Part shown: positions 1,433 through 63,436 of the stretch, in pieces
Layout of the letters: each line of letters begins with the position of its first letter
Numbering within the stretch: the first letter of the stretch is position 1
Origin: Mobula hypostoma
Taxonomy: Eukaryota
Direction of reading: 5' to 3'
Assembly (NCBI RefSeq): GCF_963921235.1
Contig: NC_086108.1
Span: 44,084,001-44,148,000, forward strand
DNA: 64,000 nt
The notes under the pieces: generated by a model
The model's database searches: none
What the model saw: only the letters and a program-made list of their open reading frames with translations
What the model was told of the DNA's origin: nothing
Position numbers and translations under genes: made by a program

Positions 1433-2471
1433 CCTGGACTATACATTTTCCCACTTTGTCAGTTGTAAAAATGCCATCCCCCTCTTTCAATTCCTCAGTC
1501 TCCACCACATCTCCTCTCAGGATGAGGCTTTTTCATTCCAGAACTAATGAAATGTCCTCCTTCTTCAAAGAAAGGGTCTTTCCTTCCTCCACCATCAACG
1601 CTGCTCTCACCTGCATCTCCTCCATTTCGCACATGTCTGCCCTCACCCCATTCACCTGCCACCCCACCAGGGTTCCTCTTGTCCTCACCTACCACCCCAC
1701 CAGCCTCCGCATCCAGCACATAATTCTCCGTAACTTCCACCATCTCCAGCAAGGTCCCATCACCAAGCACATCATTCCTTCTCCCTACTCTCCACAGGGA
1801 TTGCTCCCTATCGGACTGACTCCCTTGTCCATTCATCCCTACCCACAAATATTCCTCCTGGTACTTATCCTTGCAAGCGAAATAAGTGCTACACCTGCCC
1901 CTATACCTCCTTCCTCACTACCATTCAGGGCCCTAAACAGTCCTTCCAGGTGAGTGACACTTCACCTGTGAGTCTGTTGGGGTCATCTACTGTATCTAGT
2001 GCTCCCCGTACACTCAGGTTGGAGGAGAAATACCTTATATTCCATCTGGGTAGCCTCCAAACTGATCACATGAACATCGATTTCCCAAACTTATGGAAAT
2101 TCCCCCTTCACCATTCTGCCCATTCCCATTTTCCTCTCTCACTTTATCTCCTTACCTGCCCATCACCTCTTTCTGGTGCTCCTCCCCTTTCCCTTTCTTC
2201 CATGGCTTTCTGTCCTCTCCTATCAAATTTCCCCTTCTCCAGCCCTTTATCTCTTTCACCAATCAACTTCCCAGCTCTTTACTTCATCCTTCTCCCTCTC
2301 CCGATTTCACCTATCACCTATTACCTTGTATTTCTTCCTCCATCCCCCCACCTTCTTCTCATCTCTTTTTCCCAGTCCTGATGAAGGGCCTTGGCCTGAA
2401 ATGTTGACTGTTTACTCTTTCCCATAAATGCTGCGTGGCCTGCTGAGTTCCTCCAGCATTTTGTGTGTTTT
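1433..2471 (+). mobile_element. Penelope-like element 3' part (RT thumb, deleted GIY-YIG region, pLTR with hammerhead)
   Basis: ORF pieces RVPLVLTYHP and RLEEKYLIFHLGSLQTDHMNIDF. Imperfect 8-bp flanking repeat acttttca (1425-1432) / acttctca (2472-2479). Confidence 0.85.
2373..2410 (+). ncRNA. Minimal type I hammerhead ribozyme motif in the PLE terminus
   Basis: CAGUC-CUGAUGA-AGG gccuugg CCU-GAAAUGUU-GACUG. Core and stems I and II are intact; the stem III palindrome has decayed from ACGU to AUGU. Confidence 0.7.
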
Positions 2472-4310: not shown

Positions 4311-4750
4311 TTTAAGCTCAAGGTTCCAGGACAATGCAACCCCATTTGGCACCCCATCAACTGTTTTCAATACTTATTTCTTCTACCAATGCTGTGCATT
4401 GATTGAAGTGCATTCACTGTATTTATACACCCAGTATAACCCAACAAACTTCATAAAGCCACAGCCTCCATCACTATGAAAGACCTGAACAGCAGGCACC
4501 TGAGAAAACACTGCCTGCAGGTAGCCTCCTACGTCTACCAAGAAGGAGACCCAAGAGGTTCAGTAAACATATTTCCACAGAGAGAAAGGGCAGGACCGTC
4601 AAACCTAGAGCACCCTGGGTACAATGTTCCTAGAAGACAGGATGTGTTGAGAACATTACACCTAGGACAGGAGCAAAATTAAAAAGGAAATAAGAAAATA
4701 AAAGTCAAAAAGTGAAAAAAATACTTGCAAGAAAAATCAAGAAAATCCAA

Positions 4751-4964
4751 GCAACACACATAAAAGTTGCTGGTGAACGCAGCAGGCCAGGCAGCATCTC
4801 TAGGAAGAGGTGCAGTCGACGTTTCAGGCCGAGACCCTTCGTCAGGACTCCCTGAAACGTTGACTGCACCTCTTCCTAGAGATGCTGCCTGGCCTGCTGC
4901 GTTCACCAGCAACTTTTATGTGTGTTGCTTGAATTTCCAGCATCTGCAGAATTCCTGTTGTTTG
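4751..4964 (-). mobile_element. Fold-back mini Penelope-derived element (214 bp) with 13-bp TSD
   Basis: Inverted arms at 4748-4828 and 4851-4931 (80/81 complementary). Direct repeat caagaaaatccaa at 4738-4750 and 4965-4977. Confidence 0.85.
4814..4849 (-). ncRNA. Minimal type I hammerhead ribozyme, intact core
   Basis: Minus strand reads AGUC-CUGACGA-AGG gucucgg CCU-GAAACGUC^-GACU. All core nucleotides, a GUC cleavage triplet and a palindromic ACGU stem III are present. Confidence 0.8.
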
Positions 4965-4977
4965 CAAGAAAATCCAA

Positions 4978-6015
4978 AATAGCTTTATAATATACAGAGA
5001 GCAAGTGGATAACTAAAGAAAGCACAGAGCATCATAGAGACCAAATAGATCAACTATGTGCAGAGGCAGAGGATGTGGATAGGGTTCTTAATGAATACTC
5101 TTCCGTTGTGTTTGCAAAGGAGAGGGGATGCCAAAGGAGAAGGGGTTAAGGAGAAGTAGATGGGATAAGCACATAAATAAAGAAGTATTAAGGGGTTTAA
5201 AGCCTTTGAAAGTGTATATCTCACCAGGCCCTGATGAAATCTATCCCACTCTTTTAGAAAATGTGAGAGAGGATATCATAGAGGCCTTGGTACAAGAGGC
5301 AATGCCAATCGGGATCCAGATTTGGCTAACCCTGAAAGCTCAGTACTCCTTCACTTGCATAGAATTATACATATTAATGACTTAGATATGAATATAGGGG
5401 ACATGATATGTAATGTACAGATGATAGAAAAACTGACAGTGTTTGACAGGGATGAGGAATGCTTAAGAAAACAGGAAGATATAAACGGTCTGGGCATATA
5501 AATGGCAATTGAGTTTAGTTCAGGAGAAAAACGAGAGCAAATGTGTTTGGAGATTACAAGACAATGGAATATACAATAAATGGGAAGATGCTGGAAACAG
5601 AGAGATCTTGGGTGATAGTAGGGTCAGATAAGGAGGATGAAAAGTTTTTAATGGCCAAGGCACAACATTACCAAAGCAAAGAGGTTATCCTAACCTTAGA
5701 AAGCGTGTTAGGCCATAATCTGAGTACTGCAGACAGTTCTACTCAGCACTTTACAGAAAATATGCAATTGCACTGAAGAGGGTACAAAGGTGATTTATGA
5801 GGAATTTTACAGGACTGGAAAATTTTACTGGGGTTATTTTCTCTGGAACAGAAGAGACTACTGAAAGACCTAATTGAGGGGTCTAGAATTTTGAGGGTCC
5901 CAAGATAAAATAGGATCTGTTTCTCTTTCCATTATTGTCAAAAACTAGTGATCAGTTGAGCTGAAGACAAGTGTTTCATCCAATATGTGGCTCAAATCTG
6001 AAAGTTACTGCCTGA
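4978..6015 (+). mobile_element. Highly degenerate CR1 LINE
   Basis: SPGPDEIYPTLLE motif and C-terminal CR1 remnants. Confidence 0.65.
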
Positions 6016-6719
6016 AACACGGAAACTCTCACAAGGCTGCATAGCTGGCAGGGTGCCAGACTAAATGTTGGAAGGAGTGCAGCTCTTCAGGAAAGTGGCT
6101 TGCCACGATCTTGGCAAGTATAATTCGGGAGAGGCAATGAATACTGGCCTTGACAGCACAGCCGATGTCCCAAACCCGAATGAATAATTTAAAACAGCAT
6201 TTGCACGAACATAGAAGTTTTGGGAGATTTAGATTGTGGTCTGAATGTGAAAATACACATACCCAAATGTACCACAGACCTGGATGAAACTCTAACCCAA
6301 GCCAAAAGAAGTACACTGTGTCTTAGAATTCAAGCTTATATGGGCACCATCTATTTGTTCTCACTGCATCATTTATTAGCAGATGTAGAAACTAAAACGT
6401 ATCCAGGTTCTCACAGGAGGAAGACCAGAATACCACAGAACTATCATTCCTGGGGACATCACACACTTCAACATGCTGCAAGGGGTACACTGAACTGAAG
6501 GCAAGAAAGAGGATTGTGGGCACAAGGGTTTCTGCAGATGCTGGAAATCTTGAGCAGCACACTCAAAATAAATTCTGCCTGACTTGCTGAGTTCCTCCAG
6601 CACTGTTGTGGGCACATGTTCCGAAAGTATAACCAAAAGAGCACTATCTCCATGGGGTCAGTATCACTACTGGTGGTGCTTGGCAAACTCCCATAGTATA
6701 GAAGGGCAGCAGTAATATT

Positions 6720-7845
6720 CACAAACAAGAGGAAGTCTGCAGATGTTGGAAATCCGAGCAACACACACAAAATGCTGGAGGAACTCAGCAGGCCAGGCAG
6801 CATCTATGGAAAAAGTACAGTTTACATTTCGGGCTGAAACACTTTGGCAGGACTGAAGAAAAAAAAGCTAAGGAGTATGAGAGGTGACCTGATAGAGGTG
6901 TTTAAGCTGATGAGAGGTGTTCGATCCGTGTGGATAGTCAGAGGCTTTTTCCCAGGGCTGAAATGGCTAGCATAAGAGGGCACAGTTTTAAGTGCTGGGA
7001 AGTAGGTACAGAGGAGATGTCAGGAATAAGTTTTTTACGCAGAGAGTGGTGAGTGCGTGGAATAGGCTGCCGGTGACGGTGGTGGAGGCAGATACGATAG
7101 GGTCTTTTAAGAGACTCCTGGATAGATACGTGGAGCTCAGAGAAATAGAGGGCTATGGGTAACCCTAGGTAATTTTTCAGATAAGGACATGTTCGGCACA
7201 GCATTGTGGGCTGAAGGGCCTGTATTGTGCTGTAGTTTTTCTATGTCTAAGTTTCTATGAATAGATTTAAAAGGTGGGGGAAGGGGAGAAAGAACCACCA
7301 GGTGATAGATGAAACCTGGAGGGGGAGGAATGAAGTAAAGAGCTGGGGTGTTCATTGGTGAGATGAGGTGAGAGAGGGAAAGGGGAATGGGAAATGGAGA
7401 AGGGAGGTTGTGGGGGGCATTACTGGAAGTTTGAGAAATCGATGTTCATGCCATCAGGTTGGAGGCTACCCAAACGGAATACAAGGTGTTGTTCCTCCAA
7501 CCTAAGTGTGGCCTCATCACGACAGTGGAGGAGGCCATGGATGGACATATCGGAATGGGAATGGGAAGTGGAATTAAAATGGGTGGCCACTGGGAGATCC
7601 CGCTTGTTCTGGTGGACGGAGCGTAGATGCTCGGTGAAAGCGGTCTCCCAATCTGCATCGGGTCTCACCGATATACAGGAGGCCACACCGGGAGCACCGA
7701 ACACAGTAAATGACCCCAACAGACCCACAGGTGAAGTGTTGCCTCACCTGGACAGACTGTTTTGGGAAATGGATGGCAGTGAGGGAGGAGGTATAGCACT
7801 TGTTCCGCTTGCAAGGATAAGTACCAGGAGGGAGGTCAGTGACAT
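6720..7845 (-). mobile_element. Penelope-like element (Neptune-type GIY-YIG endonuclease plus pLTR), frameshifted; a CR1 3' end is inserted at ~6878-7259
   Basis: YPCKRNKCYT...FTCGSVGVIYCVRCSRCGLLYIGETRCRLGDRF / TEHLRSV...VATHFN...RLEEQHLVFRLGSLQPDGMN. This gives the GIY-YIG motif, catalytic R/E/N and a Cys-rich linker. Confidence 0.9.
6878..7259 (+). mobile_element. CR1 3' end nested in the PLE terminus
   Basis: Typical CR1 3' sequence (RGDLIEV...) with a tctatg-type tail. The PLE resumes on both sides. Confidence 0.75.
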
Positions 7846-11675: not shown

Positions 11676-11832
11676 GCGGTAGCCCTAATCTGACTGGCCC
11701 GCAGTCGCCGCGCCCCCTGGTGGGCATCCCGGTCACTGCCAGCCGAGACAACGTGGGAAAAGCAACACACATCAAAGTTGCTGGTGAACGCAGCAGGCCA
11801 GGCAGCATCTCTGGGAAGAGGCACAGTACGCG
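11676..11832 (+). other. S1PR1: Probable 5'UTR portion of the S1PR1 coding exon
   Basis: Strong acceptor ctgatttgttttcag|gcgg (AG at 11674-11675). Mammalian S1PR1 has a non-coding exon 1 and a 5'UTR intron. Confidence 0.65.
11761..11827 (-). mobile_element. 67-nt PLE terminal fragment in the S1PR1 5'UTR
   Basis: 63/67 identical to 4750-4816. Confidence 0.9.
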
Positions 11833-22822: not shown

Positions 22823-24118
22823 ATTATGTTCTGATAGACAACTTAAATGAGGAAATTCAGAAAGCCTCTGGAACATTGACAAACTTATTTCACATGTTTA
22901 AAACCACAGACTGCGGACCTTTAACACAATGCTCTCTGCCCTTCAAAACCATTTTATTTTGCTGCTGTAAACATTCCCTCTGCTCGTCAAGGATCAACTT
23001 TATCATGGCAAGAATCAACTTTATTCACCATCTACATTTACAGGTTTTAGGAAATTGCTGTGCTGTGCTGGTGCTACATACAACAAAAAAACAAATCAAC
23101 AATTATATAGAATAACAAATTAAATTGTATAAAAATAAGGTTAGAATTACAGATATGGAATAAAATGTGCATAAATATATAAATACCAGCATCTATTTAC
23201 AGTTTCAAGATCTCTGGAGATCTAACCTGATCCCAACATATCGATGTAGTTATAAAGAAGGCAAGACAGTGGCTATACTTCATTAGGAGTTTGAAGAGAT
23301 TTGGCATGTCAACAAATACACTCAAAAACTTCTATAGATGTACTGTGGAGAGTATTCTGACAGGCTGCATCACTGTCTAGTATGGGGGGGGGGAAGGGTG
23401 GGAGGGCTACTGCACAGGACCGAAAGAAGCTGCAGAAGGTTGAAAATCTAGTCAGCTCTATTTTGGGCACTAGACTACAAAGTACCCAGGACATCTTCAG
23501 GGAGTGGTGTCTGAAGGCACACACTCAGCAATTCAGGAACAGCTTCTTCCCCTCTGCCATCCGATTCCTAAACAGACACTGAACTGGTGAACACTACCTC
23601 ACTTTTTTAATATACAATTTATCTCAGTTTTTTGCACGATTTTATTCTATTCAATATACGTATACTATAATTGGCTGACTTATTTATTATTTTTTTCCTC
23701 TTCTTCTATATTATGTATTGCATTGAACCGCTGCTGCTAAGTTAACAAATTTCATGACACGTGCCAGTGATAATAAACCTGATTCTGATGTAAACAGCAT
23801 TATAAAGAGTGAGTGAAAGTGTTTACAGTGCCGTGCAGTGACTGAGTTAATAGTTTGTTGTATGTAACACCAACACACCACAGCAACTGTAAATGTAGAT
23901 GGTGAATAAAGGTGGTTCTTGCCATGATAAAGTTGATCCTTGACGAGCAGAGGGAATGTTTACAGCAGCAAAATAAAATGGTGAGAACACAGGTTTGAAG
24001 GGCAGAGAGCATTGTGTTAAAGGTCCACAGACTGTGGTTTTAGACATGTGAAGTAAGTTTGTCAATGTTCCGGGGGCTTTCTGAATTTCCTCATTTAAGT
24101 TGTCTATCAGGACATAAT
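22823..24118. repeat. Inverted duplication, arms 22823-23087 and 23854-24118
   Basis: Arms are reverse-complementary. ORFs 22876+ and 24065-/24012- give near-identical translations (MTNLxHMxKTTxCGPLTQCSLPFK; ILFCCCKHSLCSSRINFIMAR). Confidence 0.92.
23202..23789 (+). mobile_element. Rex1/Babar-type LINE 3' fragment inside the inverted-repeat spacer
   Basis: KKARQWLYFIRSLKRFG...NFYRCTVESILTGCIT. Tail aataaacctgattctgat. Confidence 0.85.
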
Positions 24119-27670: not shown

Positions 27671-28334
27671 CCTGGTGGCAAGAGTAGTTCTTTCAGTGTA
27701 CTACAGGTGAAAGTTCTCGATCCGAAACGTGGACTGTCTATTTGTTATTGTTATTGTTTTATTATTGTCACATGTACCGAGCTACAGTTAAAAAAAAATG
27801 TCTTGCGTCTCAAATCATTACATAGTGCATTGAGGTGAACAAGGTAAAACAATAACAATGCAGAACAAATTGTAAACGCCACAGTGTCGTGGGAGATAAA
27901 CATAAAGCTGAAGAGTTAACGAGGTAGACTGTGAGGTCAAGAGTTCGTCTGATTGCACTATGGAACCGTTCAGTTGTCTTATTACAGCGGGATAGAAGCC
28001 GCCCTTGAGACTGTAGGACGTGCTTTCAGGCCTTTGTGCCTTCTGCCCGATGGGAGAGGGGAGAAGAGAAGTTTGTCAGGGTGGGTGTATTGACTGCTTT
28101 ACTGAAGCAGCAAGAAGTGTAGACAAAATTGAGGCCCTTCACAGAAGCTGTCTGGCCCAGAGTTCCTCAGCAGTTTGTTTTTCTTGTTCCAGATTCCAAC
28201 ATTTGCTGCCCCTTGGGTTTCTCTTTCTTCCATTTACCTGATTTCCATAGTCACTGGGACCTCACCTGTTATTCATAGAGGCCATCAAGGTGCCAAATAC
28301 CCCTCTGGAAAAACTGCTTTTCATTACCTTTTCA

Positions 28335-28616
28335 CAAACTGGAGAAAATCTGCAGATGCTGGAAATCCAAGCAACACACACAAAATGCTGGAGGAACTCA
28401 GCAGGCAACATCTATGGAAAAGAGTACAGTCGCCGTTTTGGGCCAAGACCCTGTGGGAATGCGTACCTACCTCCCCTCCCCCACCTTTTAACTTTACCCC
28501 TCAACATTTTTCCTCCAGTCCTGCTGAAGGGTCTCGGCCTGAAACGTCAACTGTACCCTTTTTCCATAGATGCTGCCTGGCCTGCTGAGTTCCTCCAGCA
28601 TTTTGTGTGCGTTGCT
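28335..28616. mobile_element. Fold-back mini PLE in FAM151A intron 1, with a core-mutated hammerhead at 28516-28553
   Basis: Inverted copies of the PLE terminus. Motif reads CAGUC-CUGCUGA-AGG gucucgg CCU-GAAACGUC-AACUG. Confidence 0.8.
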
Positions 28617-31307
28617 TTCATTACCTTGTGTACACCAGCAGAAGAGTTTGTCACCGGCACACGCTGACTCTGTGCAGAGTTACACAGGCTAGCTCTGACA
28701 CACAAATATTCACACACGTACATACACAGTTAGAGAGGGTGTACATACACGGACACACATACAGTCTCATTTTCTCACAGAAAATCAGATTCAAACATTT
28801 CAGCACAGTAAGTGTGTAGAGTCTGAGATTCATATACACGGCGTCACATTAACCAACATGTGGTCATAGAGTCACATACAGGCACTCAAAGTATACTCTA
28901 TGTGTATAAAAAGCAGTCAAACTATGTGCTTGCTGAATTATTTTTATACACTAGCTGTGAATGGAACAAAGTGAGTTTGAGTAGTGTATAATTAAAGAGT
29001 ATGAGACAAAAATATATCGGTGCTGGAGGGATCAATTTGAAGGCACCAACATTCACTCCAGATATGTAGCTGAAACATCTGTTAATTACCAAGTAACTGA
29101 CATCAGTCTCCTCCACCCCGCTGAGGCTCGGATGTATTGGGATAATGTTCTACTTGCCATGGTGTGTTAGACTTGATGATAACGTGTTGGGAGATCTTGT
29201 CCATACTTGACTAGTAAACATTGTAGCAGAAATTGACTAGATGTTGATTGTCTTTGGGAAATTGATTGTCTATCTGTTTAGCCCCCTGTAGACACTAGGC
29301 TACTAGAAGTAAATACAGTGCAATCGTGCTGTGCTGTGAATGCCTTGTCTATACAGTTCAATATTACACTGTCTTCAAAAAGCCTTTTAACTTCCAACAG
29401 GCCAACAAGGAAAGAGGTTCTGCTGAAGACATTTGAGCAGCTAGGGATTAAATAAAATAGAACCAAAAAGGTAATAATTCCTGAATTGTAGCCTAAGCTA
29501 TGTACAAGTTGGCACAGGGTTAATACCAATAGAGAGTTAAATGCATGGTTCAAAGATTGGTGTGGGAGAAATAGGTTTGGATGATGGACTCCATCCTAAC
29601 TGGGATCAGATCCTGGTGAATTGCATAACTAGGGCTTTAAACTAAACAGTAAGGGGGTGGTATGGATAAAGTAAATGGGAAGGAGAGTGCGGGAGATGTT
29701 ACTAAAGTCTCCAGAATAAAGAATAACATGAAAGTTTAGGAAGAGAACAGAATTTGTCTTCAGGCAACATGGAGACAAAACTGAAAAGAAGGGTGGTGAA
29801 CACAGGGCTGAAGGTGTTAGATTTGAATACACACTGTATATGAAATAAGGTAAATTATCTTGTAGTGCATTTAGAAATTAGCAAGTATCACATCTTAGAT
29901 TTGTGGTTGAAAGAAGATCGCAGCTGGGAATTTAACATCCAAGGATATGCATTGTATTGAAAGGACAAGAGGTGAACAGAGGGGGTGGGGTGGCTTTGTT
30001 GATTAAAAAATTATAACATAATCATCACTTAAATTAGCTACAATGGCAGTGGCATCATTAGTAATTATTTTTAAGATAAATTGAATCTTATTTAGTATTT
30101 GCAGAATGTAGACCATAATAAATATAACCTAATATTAAACATCATTTTATCTTGACATTTATTAGCTATTTTGCACAGCGGATAATGCAAGCTTGCTCAA
30201 ATGTTCAAGAAAGGAGGGCAACGGTCAAGAGGGAAGTATAGGCTAGTTAGCCTGATGTCTGTTATTCAGGGAACGTTGGAATCTGTTATTAGTTAAATAG
30301 TAACAAGCCATTTAGAAAATTGCAGTACAATCAAGTTACGTCAACCTGTGTGATGAATTTTACTAGAGTACTTTGAGAATATAACATACAAAAACAGAAA
30401 CAGTAGATTGAATTTAGATTTCCAGAGAGCAGTCAATGAGGTGTCACCTATCAAGATATTGCATGGTTGTGATTACATATTAGCACAGATAGGTGATCAA
30501 CTAACTAACAGAAAACAGAGAATGAAGGTAATTGGTTCCAATTTCAGTTTGGTATGCTATAATGAGTGACGTGTCCGAAATGAGTGCAGGGGCTTCAGGT
30601 GTATACAGTCTACATTAATGACTGTAAGTTTAATTCACTGCTGGTGTAAAGATAGGGGTATAGATGCAGAGTCTGCCACAGATACAGTGGATCTAGACAC
30701 TTTAACAAAAAGGTGAAAGTTTGGCAGGTGGAGTACACTCGAAGAAATGTGAAGTTTTCCCCTTTGGTGGAAACATTCAAAAAACAGAATATGTGATCTG
30801 TAAGATAGATTCTTGGTTTATAGAGAAGGCAAGAAATATGATGAATAGGCAGAAAACTGGTGTATAGATCAGAATTTTATTGACCAGCAGAGCAGGTTTA
30901 AAGAGTTATATGACACAAACAAAACATTTTTCAGCTGACAGTTGTCTAGTCAAAGCCCCTTCAGTCTTTCAAATGTAGCCTACTGGTGCTTTATGCCATT
31001 GACATTCCATGTATTAGGAAAATATGCTATTTGGAAGACAAAATCTGATGTATACCACAAGACAGAATTTCAGCCACAATCAATAAGGATAATTTGATCA
31101 GCTATGACCAATCCAATGTTTTGCTCAGGTAAACAGGGAAATATCTGGAATGATTTGCCTATGGAAATCCTTGCAAGGAAAGATTTGTTACAGCTAATAG
31201 TTTTGATGATTTCTGAAAAAAATATTGAACTTAAAAACCATCTTGTTTGTGATGTTCAATGTCACCTGACTGAAAGAACACCATCTGTTTTATATCACCT
31301 AGTAATA

Positions 31308-39096: not shown

Positions 39097-40463
39097 TAGA
39101 ACATAGAACATAGAATACAGAATAGTACAGCATAGTACAGGCCCTTCAGCCCACAATGTTGTGCCGACCCTCAAACCCTGCCTCCCATATAAGCTCCCGC
39201 CTTAGATTCCTCCATATATCTGTCTAGTAGTCTCTTAAATTTCACTAGTGTATCTGCCTCCACCACTGACTCAGGCAGTGCATTCCACGCACCAACCACT
39301 CTCTGAGTAAAAAATCCTTCCTCTAATATCCCCCTTGAACTTCCCACCCCTTACCTTAAAGCCATGTCCTCTTGTATTGAGCAGTGGTGCCCTGGGGAAG
39401 AGGCGCTGGCTATCCACTCTATCTATTCCTCTTATTATCTTGTACACCTCTATCATATCTCCTCTCATCCTCCTTCTCTCCAAAGAGTAAAGCCCTAGCT
39501 CCCTTAATCTCTGATCATAATGCATGCTTTCTAAACCAGGCAGCATCCTGGTAAATCTCCTCTGTACCCTTTCCAATGCTTCCACATCCTTCCTATAGTG
39601 AGGTGACCAGAACTGGACACAATACTCCAAGTGTGGCCTAACCAGAGTTTTATAGAGCTGCATAATTACATCGCGACTCTTAAACTCTATCCCTCGACTT
39701 ATGAAAGCTAACACCCCATAAGCTTTCTTAACTACCCTATCCACCTGTGAGGCAACTTTCAGGGATCTGTGGACATGTACCCCGAGATCCCTCTGCTCCT
39801 CCACACTACCAAGTATCCTGCCATTTACTTTGTACTCTGCCTTGGAGTTTGTCCTTCCAAAGTGTACCACCTCACACTTCTCCAGGTTGAACTCCATCTG
39901 CCACTTCTCAGCCCACTTCTGCATCCTATCAATGTCTCTCTGCAATCCTTGACAATCCTCTACACTATCTACAACACCACCAACCTTTGTGGCGTCTGCA
40001 AACTTGCCAACCCACCCTTCTACCCCCACATCCAGGTCGTTAATAAAAGTCACGAAAAATAGAGGTCCCAGAACAGATCCTTGTGGGACACCACTAGTCA
40101 CAATCCTCCAATCTGAATGTACTCCCTCCACCACCACCCTCTGCCTTCTGCAGACAAGCCAATTCTGAATCCACTTGGCCAAACTTCCCTGGATCCCATG
40201 CCTTCTAACTTTCTGAATAAGCCTACCGTGTGGAACCTTGTCAAATAGCTTACTAAAATCCATATAGATCACATCCACTGCACTACCCTCATCTATATGC
40301 CTGGTCACCTCCTCAAAGAACTCTATCAGGCTTGTTAGACACGATCTGCCCTTCACAAAGCCATGCTGACTGTCCCTGATCAGACCATGATTCTCTAAAT
40401 GCTTATAGATCCTATCTCTAAGAATCTTTTCCAACAGCTTTCCCACCACAGACGTAAGGCTCA
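39097..40463 (-). mobile_element. Young 5'-truncated CR1 LINE (397-aa open RT fragment)
   Basis: Uninterrupted ORF 39271-40464 with SQHGFVKGRSCLT, GVPQGSVLGP and FADA (catalytic D lost). Short tandem 3' tail. Confidence 0.92.
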
Positions 40464-49284: not shown

Positions 49285-52200
49285 CATCATCATGATCATC
49301 AGGTGCCATGCCCAGTTTGAGCTTTGACTGCCATGGCCCACACACTCCTGTTTCAGGTCAAGTGGATCAATTCATTGGTATTCATTTCCAGTTCTCTGGC
49401 TGCTGTCTCCATCACCATTTGTCTTTGTCTTCCTCTTGCTTTCTCCCCTTCAATCTTTCCCATAATTACCGTGCATTCGAACTCCTCTTTCCTAATCACA
49501 TGTCCAATGAAGTTACGTTGCCTTTTCATGATCTCATACGTTATTTCTCTTTTTGTGTTTGCTCTGTTCATGATATCCTCGTTAGATATTTGTTTCGTCT
49601 GTGATATTCTTTGCATCCTTCTCAAAAACCACATCTCTGCTGCTACAATTCGTTTCCTCATGTTACTAGATAGTGTCCAACATTCTGAGCCATATAACAT
49701 AACTGGATAAACGTAACATTTCAGTACTCTTGGGCGGGTTGTCATGCCTAGTTTAGTATTGGTCAGTATACTCTTCATTCTCGTAAAGGTGTCTTTTGCC
49801 ATCCCTATTCTTCTTTTGATGTCCAAGTCGCACCTGCCATCTGATGTCACCCAGCTTCCTAAGTAGCAAAGGTTCTGTACTTGTTTTATGTCTTCCCTGT
49901 TTATTTTCAACCTGCAGATAGGATTCTCCTTTTTGGATATCACCATACATTCTGACATTCTGGCTTTTTGCAATTGATAGATGACCCATTTTTGCACTTT
50001 CTTCAACAATTATATCAATTAAGTTTTGTAGTTCTTCCTCCATACTTGCAATTAACACAGTGTCATCTCCATATCTGAAATTATTGATGTTTTCACCGCC
50101 AACTTTGATTCCCAAGATGTCTCTTATTTCTTGTAATATTGTTTCACTGTACACATTAAATAAATCGGGAGAAAACACACCCTTGTCTAATGCCTCTCTT
50201 GATTTTCGTAAACTGACTCACTTCTCCATCTATTCTTACAGTAGCAGTTTGTTCCCAGTACAGATTTCTGATTAGGCGGAGGTCTTTCGAATCTAGATCT
50301 AGAGTTTCCTGTAATATTTCAAATAACTTATTGTGCTTCACTTTATCAAATGCTTTTGTGTAGTCGATAAAACAAACAATCTTTTTGCACTTGAATTGCT
50401 CATTCTGATAGTATCCTTAACATCAATATTGCGTTTCTTGTACCTTTGTCTTTCACAAAACCACATTGTTCTTTGCCTATTTCAGCTTGTATCTTACTTT
50501 TAGCTCTTGTCATCAAAATTCTTAGAAGTATCTTGGTGATATGACTTAATAAACTTATGGTCCTATGTAATTCACATTCTATTGCTCCAGGTTTCTTAGG
50601 AGGAGTGATAAATACTGATTTTTTCATCTCTTCTGGTATTATTCAGACTCATAAATGTCATTGATTAAATCAGTAAGTTTTTCAATTCCATAGTCTTCAA
50701 GAGTGATAATTTGTTCTATTACTAATTCATCAGGGCCTGCTGCCTTTCCTTTCTTCATCTTATTTATTGCATTACGAACTTCAGATTTTAAAATACTTGG
50801 ACCTTCAATGTTTTTCTTAATTTCTGGTTTTTCGCCTCGATCGACTTCAAACAATTCCTGAATATACTCAATCCATCTATTCATAATCTCATCTTTTTCC
50901 ATGATAATGGTACCGTCCTTTGCTTTCAAACATCCATCTGAAGAACAGAGGAGCTTTTTAGCAGTGATATTCTTGATGTAACCTTTTTGGATCAGTAATA
51001 GGGATTCTTTCTATTTGCTCACATTCCTGATTTAACCATTCTTCTTTGGCTTGTTGACATAAGCTTTTAACTTTTTTATCTAAGGACTTATATTCTATAG
51101 GATTTGCTTTCTTCCATCTCCTTTCTTCCATTAAATTTTTGATTTCATCTGTCATCCATTTATTCTTTCTGCTTTTTTCTTTTTTAGGAATCACTGACTT
51201 TGCTGATTCTACCAAGGCATCCTTTAGAGAGTTAAATTTCATTTCTACATGATTGCTATCATCTTCAACAGATTCTATTTCTAGACTTTGAAATCTATTC
51301 CTTACTTCAATTGTAAATTTTTGTCTTAAGTTTTCTTCTTTAATTAATTTCAAGTAGTCAAGGGATTGTTCAGGTTTTTGCTTCTTTAGTTTTTTAAGTT
51401 TTACTTTTACATGACATAGTACTGGGTTATGGTCACTAGTACAGTCTGCACCTGGATATGTTTTGCATTGAGCCACTGAGTTTCTAAATCTTTGGTTTAT
51501 AATAATAAAGTCAATTTGATTTCTAGTGTTATCACCTGGACTTTTCCAGGTCCACAAGCATCTTGGATGGTTTTTAAAGTAGGTATTCATAATGACCTGA
51601 TTATTCATCTTGCACCATTCTACGCATTTCTCACCTCTTTCATTTCTTTCCCCTAGTCCAAATTTTCCTATGGTATTTCCATCAGCACCTTGTCCTACTT
51701 TAGCATTTAGATCTCCCATGACAATAACAATATCTTGAGATTTGCATCCATTCTTTGCTTGTTCAAGCTCTTCATAGAATTTATCTATATCCTCATTTGT
51801 TCCATCTGTTGTTGGTGCATATACCTGTATAATTGCTAAATCAAATGGTTGTCCTCTGGATCTAACAAGGAGCACTGTTTCCGATATTGCCTAATGTCCT
51901 AAAACATTTTTTGCACTGTTTTCATCGATTAGAATTCCTACTCCATTAGTATGGGATGTTCCACAAGAATAAATTAGTGTTTTATTTCTGATCTGACATG
52001 TTCCAGCACCTATCCAACGAACTTCGCTAATTCCCATGATGTTAATCTTTAGTCTTTCCATTTCACTTATCACATTGTCCAATCTTCCTGCTTGATATAG
52101 GGTTCTTACATTCCAAGTGGCAATAATGTTCTTTTGTGTTACCAGAATTTTATGACCGGTAGCTTGATGACGGTTGGGGATCCCCTGCTGGCCAGAATCA

Positions 52201-52636
52201 ACCCTACCGAGTGAAGCATCTTCAAATTGTCTTGAAGATCCTGTTAATGCTGTTGTTGTGTGATACATTTTGTGAGCTTGATCATGGTTTTCTTAGCAAA
52301 TAGCAATGGTGGTTTGCTATTGCCTACTGTTGGGCGAACTAAAGAAATCGCCACTTCTCTTCCCAAATGTTCATCCACCTATACTATAGCCATTGACATT
52401 TGAGGTCGTAGCTCACCCGCCTTCTCCGTCATAACTTCAGTTACTGAACCTGCTGGATCTGCCATTGGCCTTCGCTCGTATCCTGAGCAGGAACCCTTGC
52501 AGGCGCTTCCGTTCCGGGTCAGAGCAGCCCTGGGAGCAATGAATGACTAAGGGGTAACTCCACTTTCCCCAAAGCTCTGAAAGTCCCCAATCAGAGCCTC
52601 ATCACCGGTTGCAGTTTAGAGTCATACCCAAGACTG
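49285..52636 (-). mobile_element. Full-length RTE-clade LINE (APE + RT), frameshifted, 12-bp TSD
   Basis: APE motifs (IATWNVRTL, SEVRW, IQVYAPT, GDLNAK, QIDFI, SDHNPV) and RT motifs (RQGC, FRYGDD, YGSECW). (TGA)n-like 3' tail. TSD ctgactatctat at 49273-49284 and 52637-52648, inside an older CR1. Confidence 0.92.
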
Positions 52637-54041: not shown

Positions 54042-54196
54042 ATCCCAGCCTGGCCCACCCATCCATCACATTCCCAATTTCAGCCTGGCCTATCCATTCA
54101 TCACGTTCCCAATCTCAGCCTGGCCAACCCATTCATCATTTTCACGATCCCAGCCTGGTCGACCCATTCATCACATTCCCAGTCCCAGCTCTAGCC
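54042..54196. repeat. 35-bp minisatellite, 4.4 copies
   Basis: Unit approximately atcccagcctggccnacccattcatcacattccca. Confidence 0.9.
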
Positions 54197-55067
54197 ATAT
54201 ACCTTACACCTGACCCAAGGACACACCGAACCATATTCACAAATTGCTACTGTTAAGAAAAAAACCAAAGCAGTCATTCAGTTTAGAAGCTTAAAAGATC
54301 CACTTCATTCAAAAATCTAAGAATTCCATGTCAATTTTTTCCCAAAAATATCTACTTCCATTGGACATTTAGCAATCTACTTCCTTAAACTGGTTTAAAA
54401 AAAATACAGCTGTGGTCTAGAGAAAGACTGATAAAGAGGAAAGATCTCAAAAGTACACCATAGTGTCCTCACTGGCGGCACCCAGATATGGAGCAACTGG
54501 AATTCACTATCACTGCCACGTACACCTCAAATATACTCTCCACTATTCCATAACGTTGCTGGGTCAGAATCATGGAGTCCCGTAAAGCATTTTAAGGGCA
54601 TCTTTATCATAAAGACTAAAATTTTGAAAGTAACCTCCACTCTCATCTTGAGAGAAAAAAGGGAATAAGTAACGAATGCTGGACTGACCCTTGTTTTGCT
54701 TACTTTCAGAATGAATGAAAAGAAAATTGGCTAAGAATGCAGGGTTTCAACTCAAAATGTCAACAATTCCTATCCTTTCACAGATGCTGCTGAACCCACC
54801 GAGTTCCTCCAGCAGTTTGTTGCTTGTAATACTTGCCGATGCTTTGCAAATATTTATAAGCTGTACTACGAATGGAAGAACATATGGAAGGGCCATATAT
54901 TAAACTGAAGAAACATCTCAGTCTGAAACATCAACTGTTTGTTCCTCTCCATGAATGCTGCCTGACCTGCTGAGTTCCTCCAGCATTTTGTGTGTGTTGC
55001 TGATATACTTTGTATGGAATTCTTGTTGAACAATTTATAATTCTCATCTGTAAAATATTTCATGTAG

Positions 55068-61979: not shown

Positions 61980-62771
61980 GTAATGCTGTCCTTTTCAATT
62001 AATGACATTTTGGTGACACTATTGAATTCATATTTTGGGCCACTATAACCTCCTCCACAATGAATCTTGCACTTATGAAGAAAGTATTTCTTGCAGTTGA
62101 TAGGAACTATTTTCCCATTTTGTTGCCACTAATTCCTTGGGTTAATTGAGCCACTAGAAATTACCCTCAGCAGCTTGATGAGTGAAAGAATCTGGAGGGA
62201 GTCGAAAGGTGTGCAGAGAGAATAGCTGTCAGAAAAAACTTGTGGGGGAATGGATTGCTCTATGAGTGGCATAGTGTAAGCTGGCTGAAATAGCTTCCAA
62301 TGACAATATGGTAAAGGATAGGAGGGACAAGGAGGCAGGGAAGACAACTTTCTCTAATGAACTCGTAATAAGATGTGATGAAGTCATTAAAATCTCCAGT
62401 ATACATCAATGAATGTACACTTTACTCAGCAGATCCCATTATTACATTAATTTCCACACAAGGGCTTTTTCTGGACCAGCAATTTTAGTTTGGCTAACCA
62501 AATACATGAACATTTGTGAAGATGATTGGAGCAGGTAACTGTTGTATCCTGAGCTGGTACAGCTGCACAGACAGAGGAGAAGTCTTTTTGCTGCATTTCT
62601 CTGGGTCTTGTCCACTTTACAGCCAATGAATCACTGCTTTCACTTTCTATAATTACCTGAGCTCAGGTTCATTCTATATAGTTAAACATTGTAAGGGTTT
62701 GGATAGGTTGTAAATCTGAAGACATAAACCCAAGCATATCATATAAATGCTCTTATTTCAATTTCTTAAAG

Positions 62772-63436
62772 GGAACGCTGGAGGAATGCTCGTCCTGAAT
62801 GTGAAGAGTAAAATCGGTAACATTCTGTTGGTGGAAAGTTCCAAACCTGGATCAGATTTCCTTTTGGAAGAGGTTCTATATCAGGTCTTACGTTCATCAA
62901 ACCAGTGGGGCGTTCACCTAAAGATAAAATCCACTCAGGCACTAGCTCCAACTCTGTATCTGCTTTATGATCTTTACACACAACACCTTCTCCACATACC
63001 CGTCTGGATCAGCATGGATGTCTCTTACGGCAGCTTCAGCACACCCGGGTATATTGAAGGAAGCCAATTCATCAATACCATCAATAAAATATTTCCTTTT
63101 GTAACTATAGCTCCAAGCTGGCCAGCTGAAGCACTTAACCATGGTTACACAGAATCCTTGGTGGAAGACATGCTGAGTCTTTGTCAGGGGTTGTGGCAAA
63201 TGTTGTCCTTCCAGCTCCAGGCTATTCCGTTGTCTAAATCATGGCAGGCGACCTTCAAACTGCTGCAGGCTTCCCCCAGCTACACTCTGACAGTGGAACA
63301 CCTACATACACAGGGCACATATGTGGATGCGTTTCGAGGACTGATCAACATGCGAATGCACAGCAGCCGTCGGGTTTACTACCGTTTACCTCCAGATTAT
63401 AGAAATAATTTTGAGATTGATATTTTTACTTCATAA
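62772..63436 (+). CDS. FAM151A: FAM151A exon 8 (terminal)
   Basis: Acceptor ttcttaaag|gg. Encodes WGVHLKI...PVWI...GSFSTPGYI...LCQGLWQMLSFQ...RVYYRLP, stop TAA. The spliced CDS totals 1794 nt in frame. Confidence 0.95.

Follow-up and report, generated by a model that had tools for sequence, protein, structure and literature searches.

Insertions of Penelope-like elements (PLEs) often comprise an inverted, 5′-truncated copy lying beside a direct copy, with a tail of 30–40 bp on one side only (PMC8557442, PMC3846280, PMC8969392; these and the sources below are cited for the passages that treat the features concerned). In Pen2a_Av of Adineta vaga, for instance, an inverted pLTR is accompanied by a 31-bp tail and a 9-bp TSD (PMC3846280). 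The mechanism behind such head-to-head insertions was described as undefined in PMC8557442. The PLE protein of Anolis, a predicted dimer, was reported to cut and extend both target strands in vitro, to start at two sites flanking the tail, and to insert without ribozyme cleavage (PMC11167929). PLEs were detected in all vertebrates surveyed, the elephant shark included (PMC4350176), PLE-derived retrozymes were reported in the one chondrichthyan genome sampled in bioRxiv 10.64898/2026.07.22.740005, and pairs of minimal hammerheads (min-HHRs) on opposite strands, 100–700 bp apart, were noted in 2014 (PMC4209133).

The locus described here, a fold-back at 4751–4964 of the window (i.e., the whole 64-kb stretch of DNA that was analysed), shares with units of the Pen2a_Av type the head-to-head inverted 5′-truncated copy, the one-sided tail in the 30–40-bp range, the short TSD and the AT-rich target. 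It differs from them in having neither an ORF nor a body between its arms and in residing in a cartilaginous fish, and its TSD measures 13 bp as against 8–10 bp in the rotifer examples given in PMC3846280 and PMC8557442. Its ribozyme motif resembles the metazoan PLE min-HHRs of PMC4209133 in the type I core, the short stem I, the bulge after A9 and the palindromic 15.2–16.2 without a helix III, and close opposite-strand pairs are mentioned in the same source; it departs from them in having a G·U for the G10.1-C11.1 pair and in being whole in one arm only, and the passages cited do not mention cartilaginous fishes. The PAc (Poseidon) element of Anolis carolinensis also has two start sites flanking the tail and a pLTR hammerhead, dispensable for insertion there; as described in PMC11167929, PAc starts without homology to the cut DNA, whereas a homology of 7/8 bases is present at the tail-less end here; products with two arms do not figure in the passages cited. 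With the non-LTR retrozymes of bioRxiv 10.64898/2026.07.22.740005 the locus has in common a non-coding, PLE-derived sequence and a type I hammerhead. Retrozymes, however, are described there as tandem arrays of head-to-tail units, each with its own ribozyme, and we rejected this assignment: 4751–4964 is head-to-head with one complete motif, and does not comprise at least two head-to-tail units that each hold a complete hammerhead. Judged by the structural features compared, 4751–4964 would be classed as an insertion unit of an endonuclease-bearing PLE.

A description of this family’s ribozyme in sharks or rays was not found in the literature searched, subscription papers, Repbase and supplements lying largely outside its scope, and a search on elasmobranch genomes returned nothing specific to this PLE family; the species tables belonging to PMC4209133 and bioRxiv 10.64898/2026.07.22.740005 may already list it.

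Structure of the fold-back insertion

The insert spans 214 bp (4751–4964) and lies between two 13-bp TSD copies, both reading CAAGAAAATCCAA, which repeat comparison placed at 4738–4750 and 4965–4977. Of 3000 random position pairs, none had an abutting direct repeat of at least 13 nt (the best reached 12). TSD, insert length and the 22-nt loop are all as given in an earlier note on this DNA. An inverted-repeat search that included TSD bases returned arms at 4743–4828 and 4851–4936 (86 nt, 98% identity); counted strictly within the TSDs, the arms measure 78 nt with a single mismatch (4818/4861), a CpG transition in the right arm at the cleavage-site C17. The arms are therefore near-perfect, as the note had it, although its length of 81 bp counted 3 nt of TSD. 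It had also overlooked that the right arm extends 36 nt past the left one.

Positions in the pLTR are counted here from the base at which hammerhead stem I begins. By alignment, the left arm (4751–4849, minus strand) is an inverted, tail-less, 5′-truncated pLTR copy covering positions 1–99, including 21 of the 22 loop bases, which it templates. The right arm (4851–4964, plus strand) is a direct, 5′-truncated copy covering positions 22–135, with only the 3′ half of the hammerhead and with C17 mutated at 4861. Between them, the single junction base at 4850 appears to be templated by neither arm. The 36-bp PLE tail (4929–4964, plus strand) belongs to the right arm only and ends at the family’s common 3′ end; in the public contigs, loose ends pile up at 4963–4965, the tailed end of the PLE family. 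At the other side, the final 8 nt of the left TSD agree with element positions 100–107 at 7/8 bases, against a background of ~0.001 per position. Over 4738–4977, stops interrupt five of the six frames and the sole open frame lacks an ATG, in agreement with the claimed absence of an ORF. The fold-back has a fold z-score of -23, and 0/200 shuffles were as stable. A near copy of the TSD start lies directly left of the TSD (4725–4737), with 4725–4740 and 4962–4977 being 88% alike; it could stem from a short duplication that predates the insertion, or from a stutter during it.

The same repeat is present about ten further times in the window. The arms are pLTR sequence, 83–86% identical to the pLTRs that adjoin PLE-type bodies at 1402–2475 and 6718–7840, and the PLE origin proposed earlier is thereby upheld. 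The former (plus strand) is an older PLE 3′ fragment consisting of a broken coding region, a pyrimidine-rich 3′ region and a pLTR 85% identical to the arm, with a decayed hammerhead at 2374–2409 (plus strand). The latter (minus strand), also an older 3′ fragment, has a tailed pLTR (83–86%) and includes a GIY-YIG-like frame (7574–7840, minus strand) in whose translation the YIG motif is visible; it is split by a LINE piece (~6870–7260) that resembles 39102–39475. Since this LINE lies inside the fragment, it was active after the older PLE subfamily. The GIY-YIG identity of the PLE body is a lead, with an atlas score of 0.95 and PF01541 on 16% of one cluster’s members; Pfam gave no relevant match on any of four PLE fragments of the window. 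The earlier note had these PLEs mobilise the fold-back, yet their bodies, an older subfamily, are not the mobilisers, as they are broken into several frames and are 83–86% identical to the arms.

The same plan recurs in a second, older fold-back at 28319–28627. A TSD of 12 bp flanks it, only one of its two arms is tailed, and it turns at a different position; the longer arm holds a mutated hammerhead core, the shorter none. When eight ends from the window were aligned, five were tail-less, at approximately positions 99–101, and three were tailed.

Public contigs and the origin of the two arms

The 24 sequencing runs listed by a search include no RNA run, which has no bearing on expression. Contigs of 4 of these 24 were aligned to 4400–5200 at 88% likeness, yielding 87,261 aligned contigs for run X1 and 13,813–54,598 for each other run, i.e., a very high abundance of the repeat in these four runs. 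Run X1, possibly the source sample, matches both flanks exactly into the insert (4400–4770 and 4945–5200), and run X5, from organism B, matches 4400–4771 and 4943–5200 with 6 differences in 630 nt. The insertion thus appears to predate the split from organism B, whose contigs enter the insert by only 21–22 nt, less than the 31-nt bridging rule; its site is read as filled because its contigs stop where the X1 contigs stop and the rows listed include no skip from 4750 to 4978. As for an empty site, the left flank is covered in organism C only up to 4721, where the contig ends, and in organism D not at all, and organism B is apparently filled. The insertion can be called fairly recent and TSD-bounded, while the “young” of the earlier note holds only loosely, given that organism B apparently carries it.

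The table of joints, i.e., positions at which contigs turn from one arm to the other, has 456 rows, and the best 15 of the 456 are 15 different position pairs, all running from antisense (left arm or loop) to sense (right arm). In 13 of these 15 the sequence between is entered as not known, most of the shorter sides measure less than 30 nt, and X1 is too deep for a full count; the table also omits the junction of 4751–4964 itself, which is identical to the reference, so that its copy number is not readable there. The best-supported joints reach a depth near 200, compared with flank depths of 17.4 (X1) and 9.6 (X5), depth not being equal to copy number. The joints 4786/4893, 4799/4880 and 4777/4915 have fixed inserted letters and ~10–20x flank depth, and the first two are symmetric, with both arms stopping at the same position. 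This pattern fits many independent fold-backs of which a few were multiplied later, the recurrent joints reflecting either re-mobilisation or duplication of larger segments. We rejected two further patterns: turning at the ribozyme cut, suggested by 2 of the 15 listed joints that restart at 4862, one base past the cut site, where the private mismatch of the reference at 4861 would clip alignments, and a preferred truncation at 4849 deduced from piled loose ends, as any longer copy must leave the reference there. Pattern scans returned one locus in viral contigs, none in genome contigs, and none, then 19 with a looser pattern, in metagenome contigs; none of these 20 loci matched beyond the 20–26-nt pattern region, and they were dismissed as chance.

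The reading that we favour, with a probability of roughly 0.85, is that an abundant endonuclease-bearing PLE produced 4751–4964 in a single insertion, dead on arrival and in the shortest form of the “inverted copy plus tail” arrangement; this reading takes the TSD from the sequence alone and involves a junction whose copy number is not readable. Within one 13-bp TSD lie two truncated pLTR pieces, arranged head-to-head and with a tail on one of them only. The PLE family ends at either of two fixed 3′ positions and turns at many different points, as judged by the best 15 of 456 joints and by the window. The earlier note had proposed a discrete mini-family instead, that is, a non-autonomous fold-back unit with a fixed junction and fixed ends, re-transcribed and re-inserted by PLE proteins in trans. 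Such units would find precedent in known non-autonomous PLE derivatives and in rotifer pLTRs, which according to PMC3846280 sufficed alone for mobilisation in trans; the family 3′ end and tail are retained here, a few other junctions recur at 10–20x flank depth, and the copy number of the present junction is the one that the table does not display. The ends are indeed shared, being the PLE family’s two general 3′ ends, but the junctions are heterogeneous, the kind of outcome that the earlier note itself had set as refuting: all 15 listed among the best of 456 differ, the second fold-back of the window turns elsewhere, and the junction of 4751–4964 occurs only once in the 64 kb. Moreover, a copied fold-back would have no need of the left-end match to native PLE positions 100–107, and would have to stop exactly at the family’s internal start site. 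We therefore consider a mini-family improbable, and see an equally small chance that some hairpin units, possibly 4751–4964 among them, were re-copied whole by the PLE machinery into small, MITE-like fold-back lineages. Were that the case, the junctions whose inserted letters are identical at 10–20x flank depth would count as the first examples of re-copied fold-backs and, if transcribed, re-copied units would supply perfect dsRNA against the parent PLE family. An assembly artefact or a DNA-type MITE is hardly plausible: assemblers can be misled by long inverted repeats, and the centre of the fold-back is unspanned among the contigs listed, yet the flank-to-arm joins on both sides are matched by contigs of two organisms, and the one-sided tail, the PLE pLTR arms and the 13-bp TSD argue against a MITE.

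Given a single PLE insertion, we lean towards a model in which two cDNAs were primed separately from the two target strands. The PLE enzyme would have cut both target strands, 13 nt apart. The right target 3′ end would have primed reverse transcription of an ordinary PLE RNA at the distal start site, giving rise to the tailed arm, and the left target 3′ end, aided by the 7/8 match, would have primed at the proximal site, giving rise to the tail-less arm. Both cDNAs would then have stopped early, and their joining, with the addition of one untemplated base, would have taken place close to a short inverted match that lies in register.

Several features bear on this model. The loop sequence belongs to the tail-less (left) arm, and its orientation, combined with the one-sided tail, excludes a simple snap-back of either first-strand cDNA: arguing from the sequence, a snap-back of the tailed cDNA would place the loop on the tailed arm, and a tail-less cDNA that snapped back could not copy the tail. 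The 7/8 match to template positions 100–107 is as expected if the left target end primed on native PLE RNA. In addition, the native sequence upstream of position 1 apparently matches the start of the right arm over 5–6 nt, in register and 2 nt from the turn; this match was noticed post hoc, and the native upstream sequence was taken from seven X10 (organism C) contigs through 4857 and from one X1 joint, which supplies the first 4 native bases, rather than from this subfamily’s master. Twin priming explains the loop placement, the 7/8 homology and the 5–6-nt inverted match together. A literature search that joined Penelope with twin priming found nothing on PLE insertion structure among titles and the starts of abstracts.

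The alternative to the priming step alone, which combines proposals made in PMC3846280 and PMC8557442, is that an antisense PLE RNA self-primed at the inverted match and that the endonuclease resolved the resulting hairpin asymmetrically. This scheme, too, would place the arms head-to-head and assign the loop to the tail-less one, as observed, and could draw on the same 5–6-nt in-register match, apparently 2 nt from the turn. Under self-priming, however, the two native bases beside the match should persist, and the locus has two others, one of them templated by the other arm; furthermore, the enzyme in vitro starts at both tail boundaries on an RNA spanning the junction of pLTR and ORF, and extends both DNA strands. 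We thus regard self-priming as rather unlikely. The locus is one of very many PLE remnants, and its value is that of a clean specimen: minimal two-armed insertions contain, in ~240 bp, the TSD, the junction and the two ends, and if collected genome-wide in this lineage they could tell twin priming from antisense self-priming.

The hammerhead motif and the hairpin

The minimal type I hammerhead motif lies on the minus strand at 4814–4849, with a 4-bp stem I, the core CUGACGA, a bulged A, GAAA and a palindromic ACGU; the predicted cut falls between 4818 and 4817. All of CUGANGA, GAAA and UH with a closing stem I are present, as are the bulged base between 9 and 10.1 and the palindrome at 15.2–16.2 that mark min-HHRs. 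The motif sits in a pLTR-derived arm, as suits the pLTR origin assigned to it earlier, and is present because every pLTR carries one; the insert holds one complete motif and, in the right arm, a 3′ half. A minimal-hammerhead descriptor matched twice in the 64-kb window (4849, minus strand, and the older copy at 2374, plus strand), compared with 0.01 matches per simulated 64-kb window (n=200), whereas an Rfam scan (E up to 10) over the 64 kb returned no hammerhead and two unrelated sub-threshold matches. The check by models that had been proposed for the motif was thus positive for the descriptor and negative for Rfam.

The ribozyme had been called intact, with a 3-bp stem II. The letters of the core and of the 4-bp stem I are as claimed, but the conserved G10.1-C11.1 pair is absent, replaced by G·U. 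In the published min-HHR parse, with the bulge after A9, stem II has 4 bp and starts with G10.1·U11.1; it exceeds the 3-bp parse in stability by 1.4 kcal/mol and displaces it. A C at 11.1 is kept in two older copies in the window, and the U at 11.1 in both arms implies that the template already had it. A G·U in place of G10.1-C11.1 would be expected to lower hammerhead activity, and dimer cleavage by small PLE hammerheads was reportedly described by Lünse and colleagues in 2017. Of the variant places in run X1, 34/51 are C>T or G>A, and both strands of the two hammerhead CpGs (positions 15.2/16.2 and 17/1.1) are among the places affected, a pattern expected of neutral decay.

Regarding folding, a minus-strand transcript would adopt the long hairpin because the complementary arm is made first. 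At all six nascent lengths computed, the ribozyme stems cost 18–30 kcal/mol more than the hairpin, and 20 nt of the 5′ arm were already enough to disfavour the ribozyme fold; the energies are nearest-neighbour estimates, with tertiary contacts and protein left out of the calculation. Computed ribozyme-stem occupancy was 1e-13 to 1e-21 in context and ~1e-3 to 1e-4 without the 5′ arm. Even the isolated 36-mer favoured a rod that pairs its core (-10.0 vs -6.0 and -4.6 kcal/mol for the two ribozyme parses), and a GUCGAC palindrome across the cut site forms a stronger duplex than ACGU (-10.3 vs -3.1). The two folds are mutually exclusive, as the earlier note had reasoned, and in these computations the fold-back is predicted to be a trap and not the switch envisaged there, the energy gap being too wide. 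A minus-strand fold-back transcript would not cleave, and the hammerhead would be a passenger inherited from the pLTR and kept from folding by the hairpin.

A functional hairpin/ribozyme switch maintained by selection could appeal to this mutual exclusion, to the complete core and to an insertion apparently common to two organisms. The flank divergence between the two, however, is only ~1%, too small to reveal conservation; the inhibitory arm is transcribed before the ribozyme half, the pairings computed above leave the ribozyme stems almost unoccupied, and the S1P-receptor gene close by is on the other strand than the motif. We find such a switch barely credible. The motif is located ~4 kb upstream of a CpG-rich stretch that starts near 9.0 kb. 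A transcript of either strand would form a 78-bp duplex, on which editing or small-RNA pathways might act. PLE silencing by small RNA was reported in rotifer and Drosophila (PMC3846280), and a literature search on PLE-derived siRNA found nothing specific.

Neighbouring features of the window

A 68-bp tail-less scrap of the same young subfamily as the arms (94%), the sole close copy in the window, lies on the minus strand at 11760–11827, ending 5 nt before the ATG (11833) of the S1P-receptor gene, for which the closest solved structure is S1PR1 (E 4.5e-159). A likely splice acceptor is located near 11676; being downstream of it and before the ATG, the scrap is probably in the 5′ UTR of this gene. 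Speculatively, its flanks (ACG-TGGG on the left, ACGCGATGGG on the right) could be what is left of a TSD in which the start codon was duplicated and the upstream ATG later lost. That the scrap starts 1 nt after the ribozyme cut was discarded as a signal, as it is one case in about ten, not significant, and the alignment is ambiguous over positions 29–34.

Other elements were also observed. A 1.3-kb element at 22823–24118, with terminal inverted repeats of ~220 bp at 94–98%, encloses a repeat that is present also near 8.4 kb and 42.6 kb, and has the appearance of a non-autonomous DNA transposon into which another sequence was inserted. A tandem array at 54042–54216 has a 35-bp unit, with ~5 units 67–81% alike. 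The reading frame at 62747–63436 encodes a Menorin domain (PF10223, E 2e-42) and is probably the last exon of a host gene. Lastly, broken LINE frames, which we take to be RTE-like, occupy 49353–52292 on the minus strand and include endonuclease- and reverse-transcriptase-like stretches.
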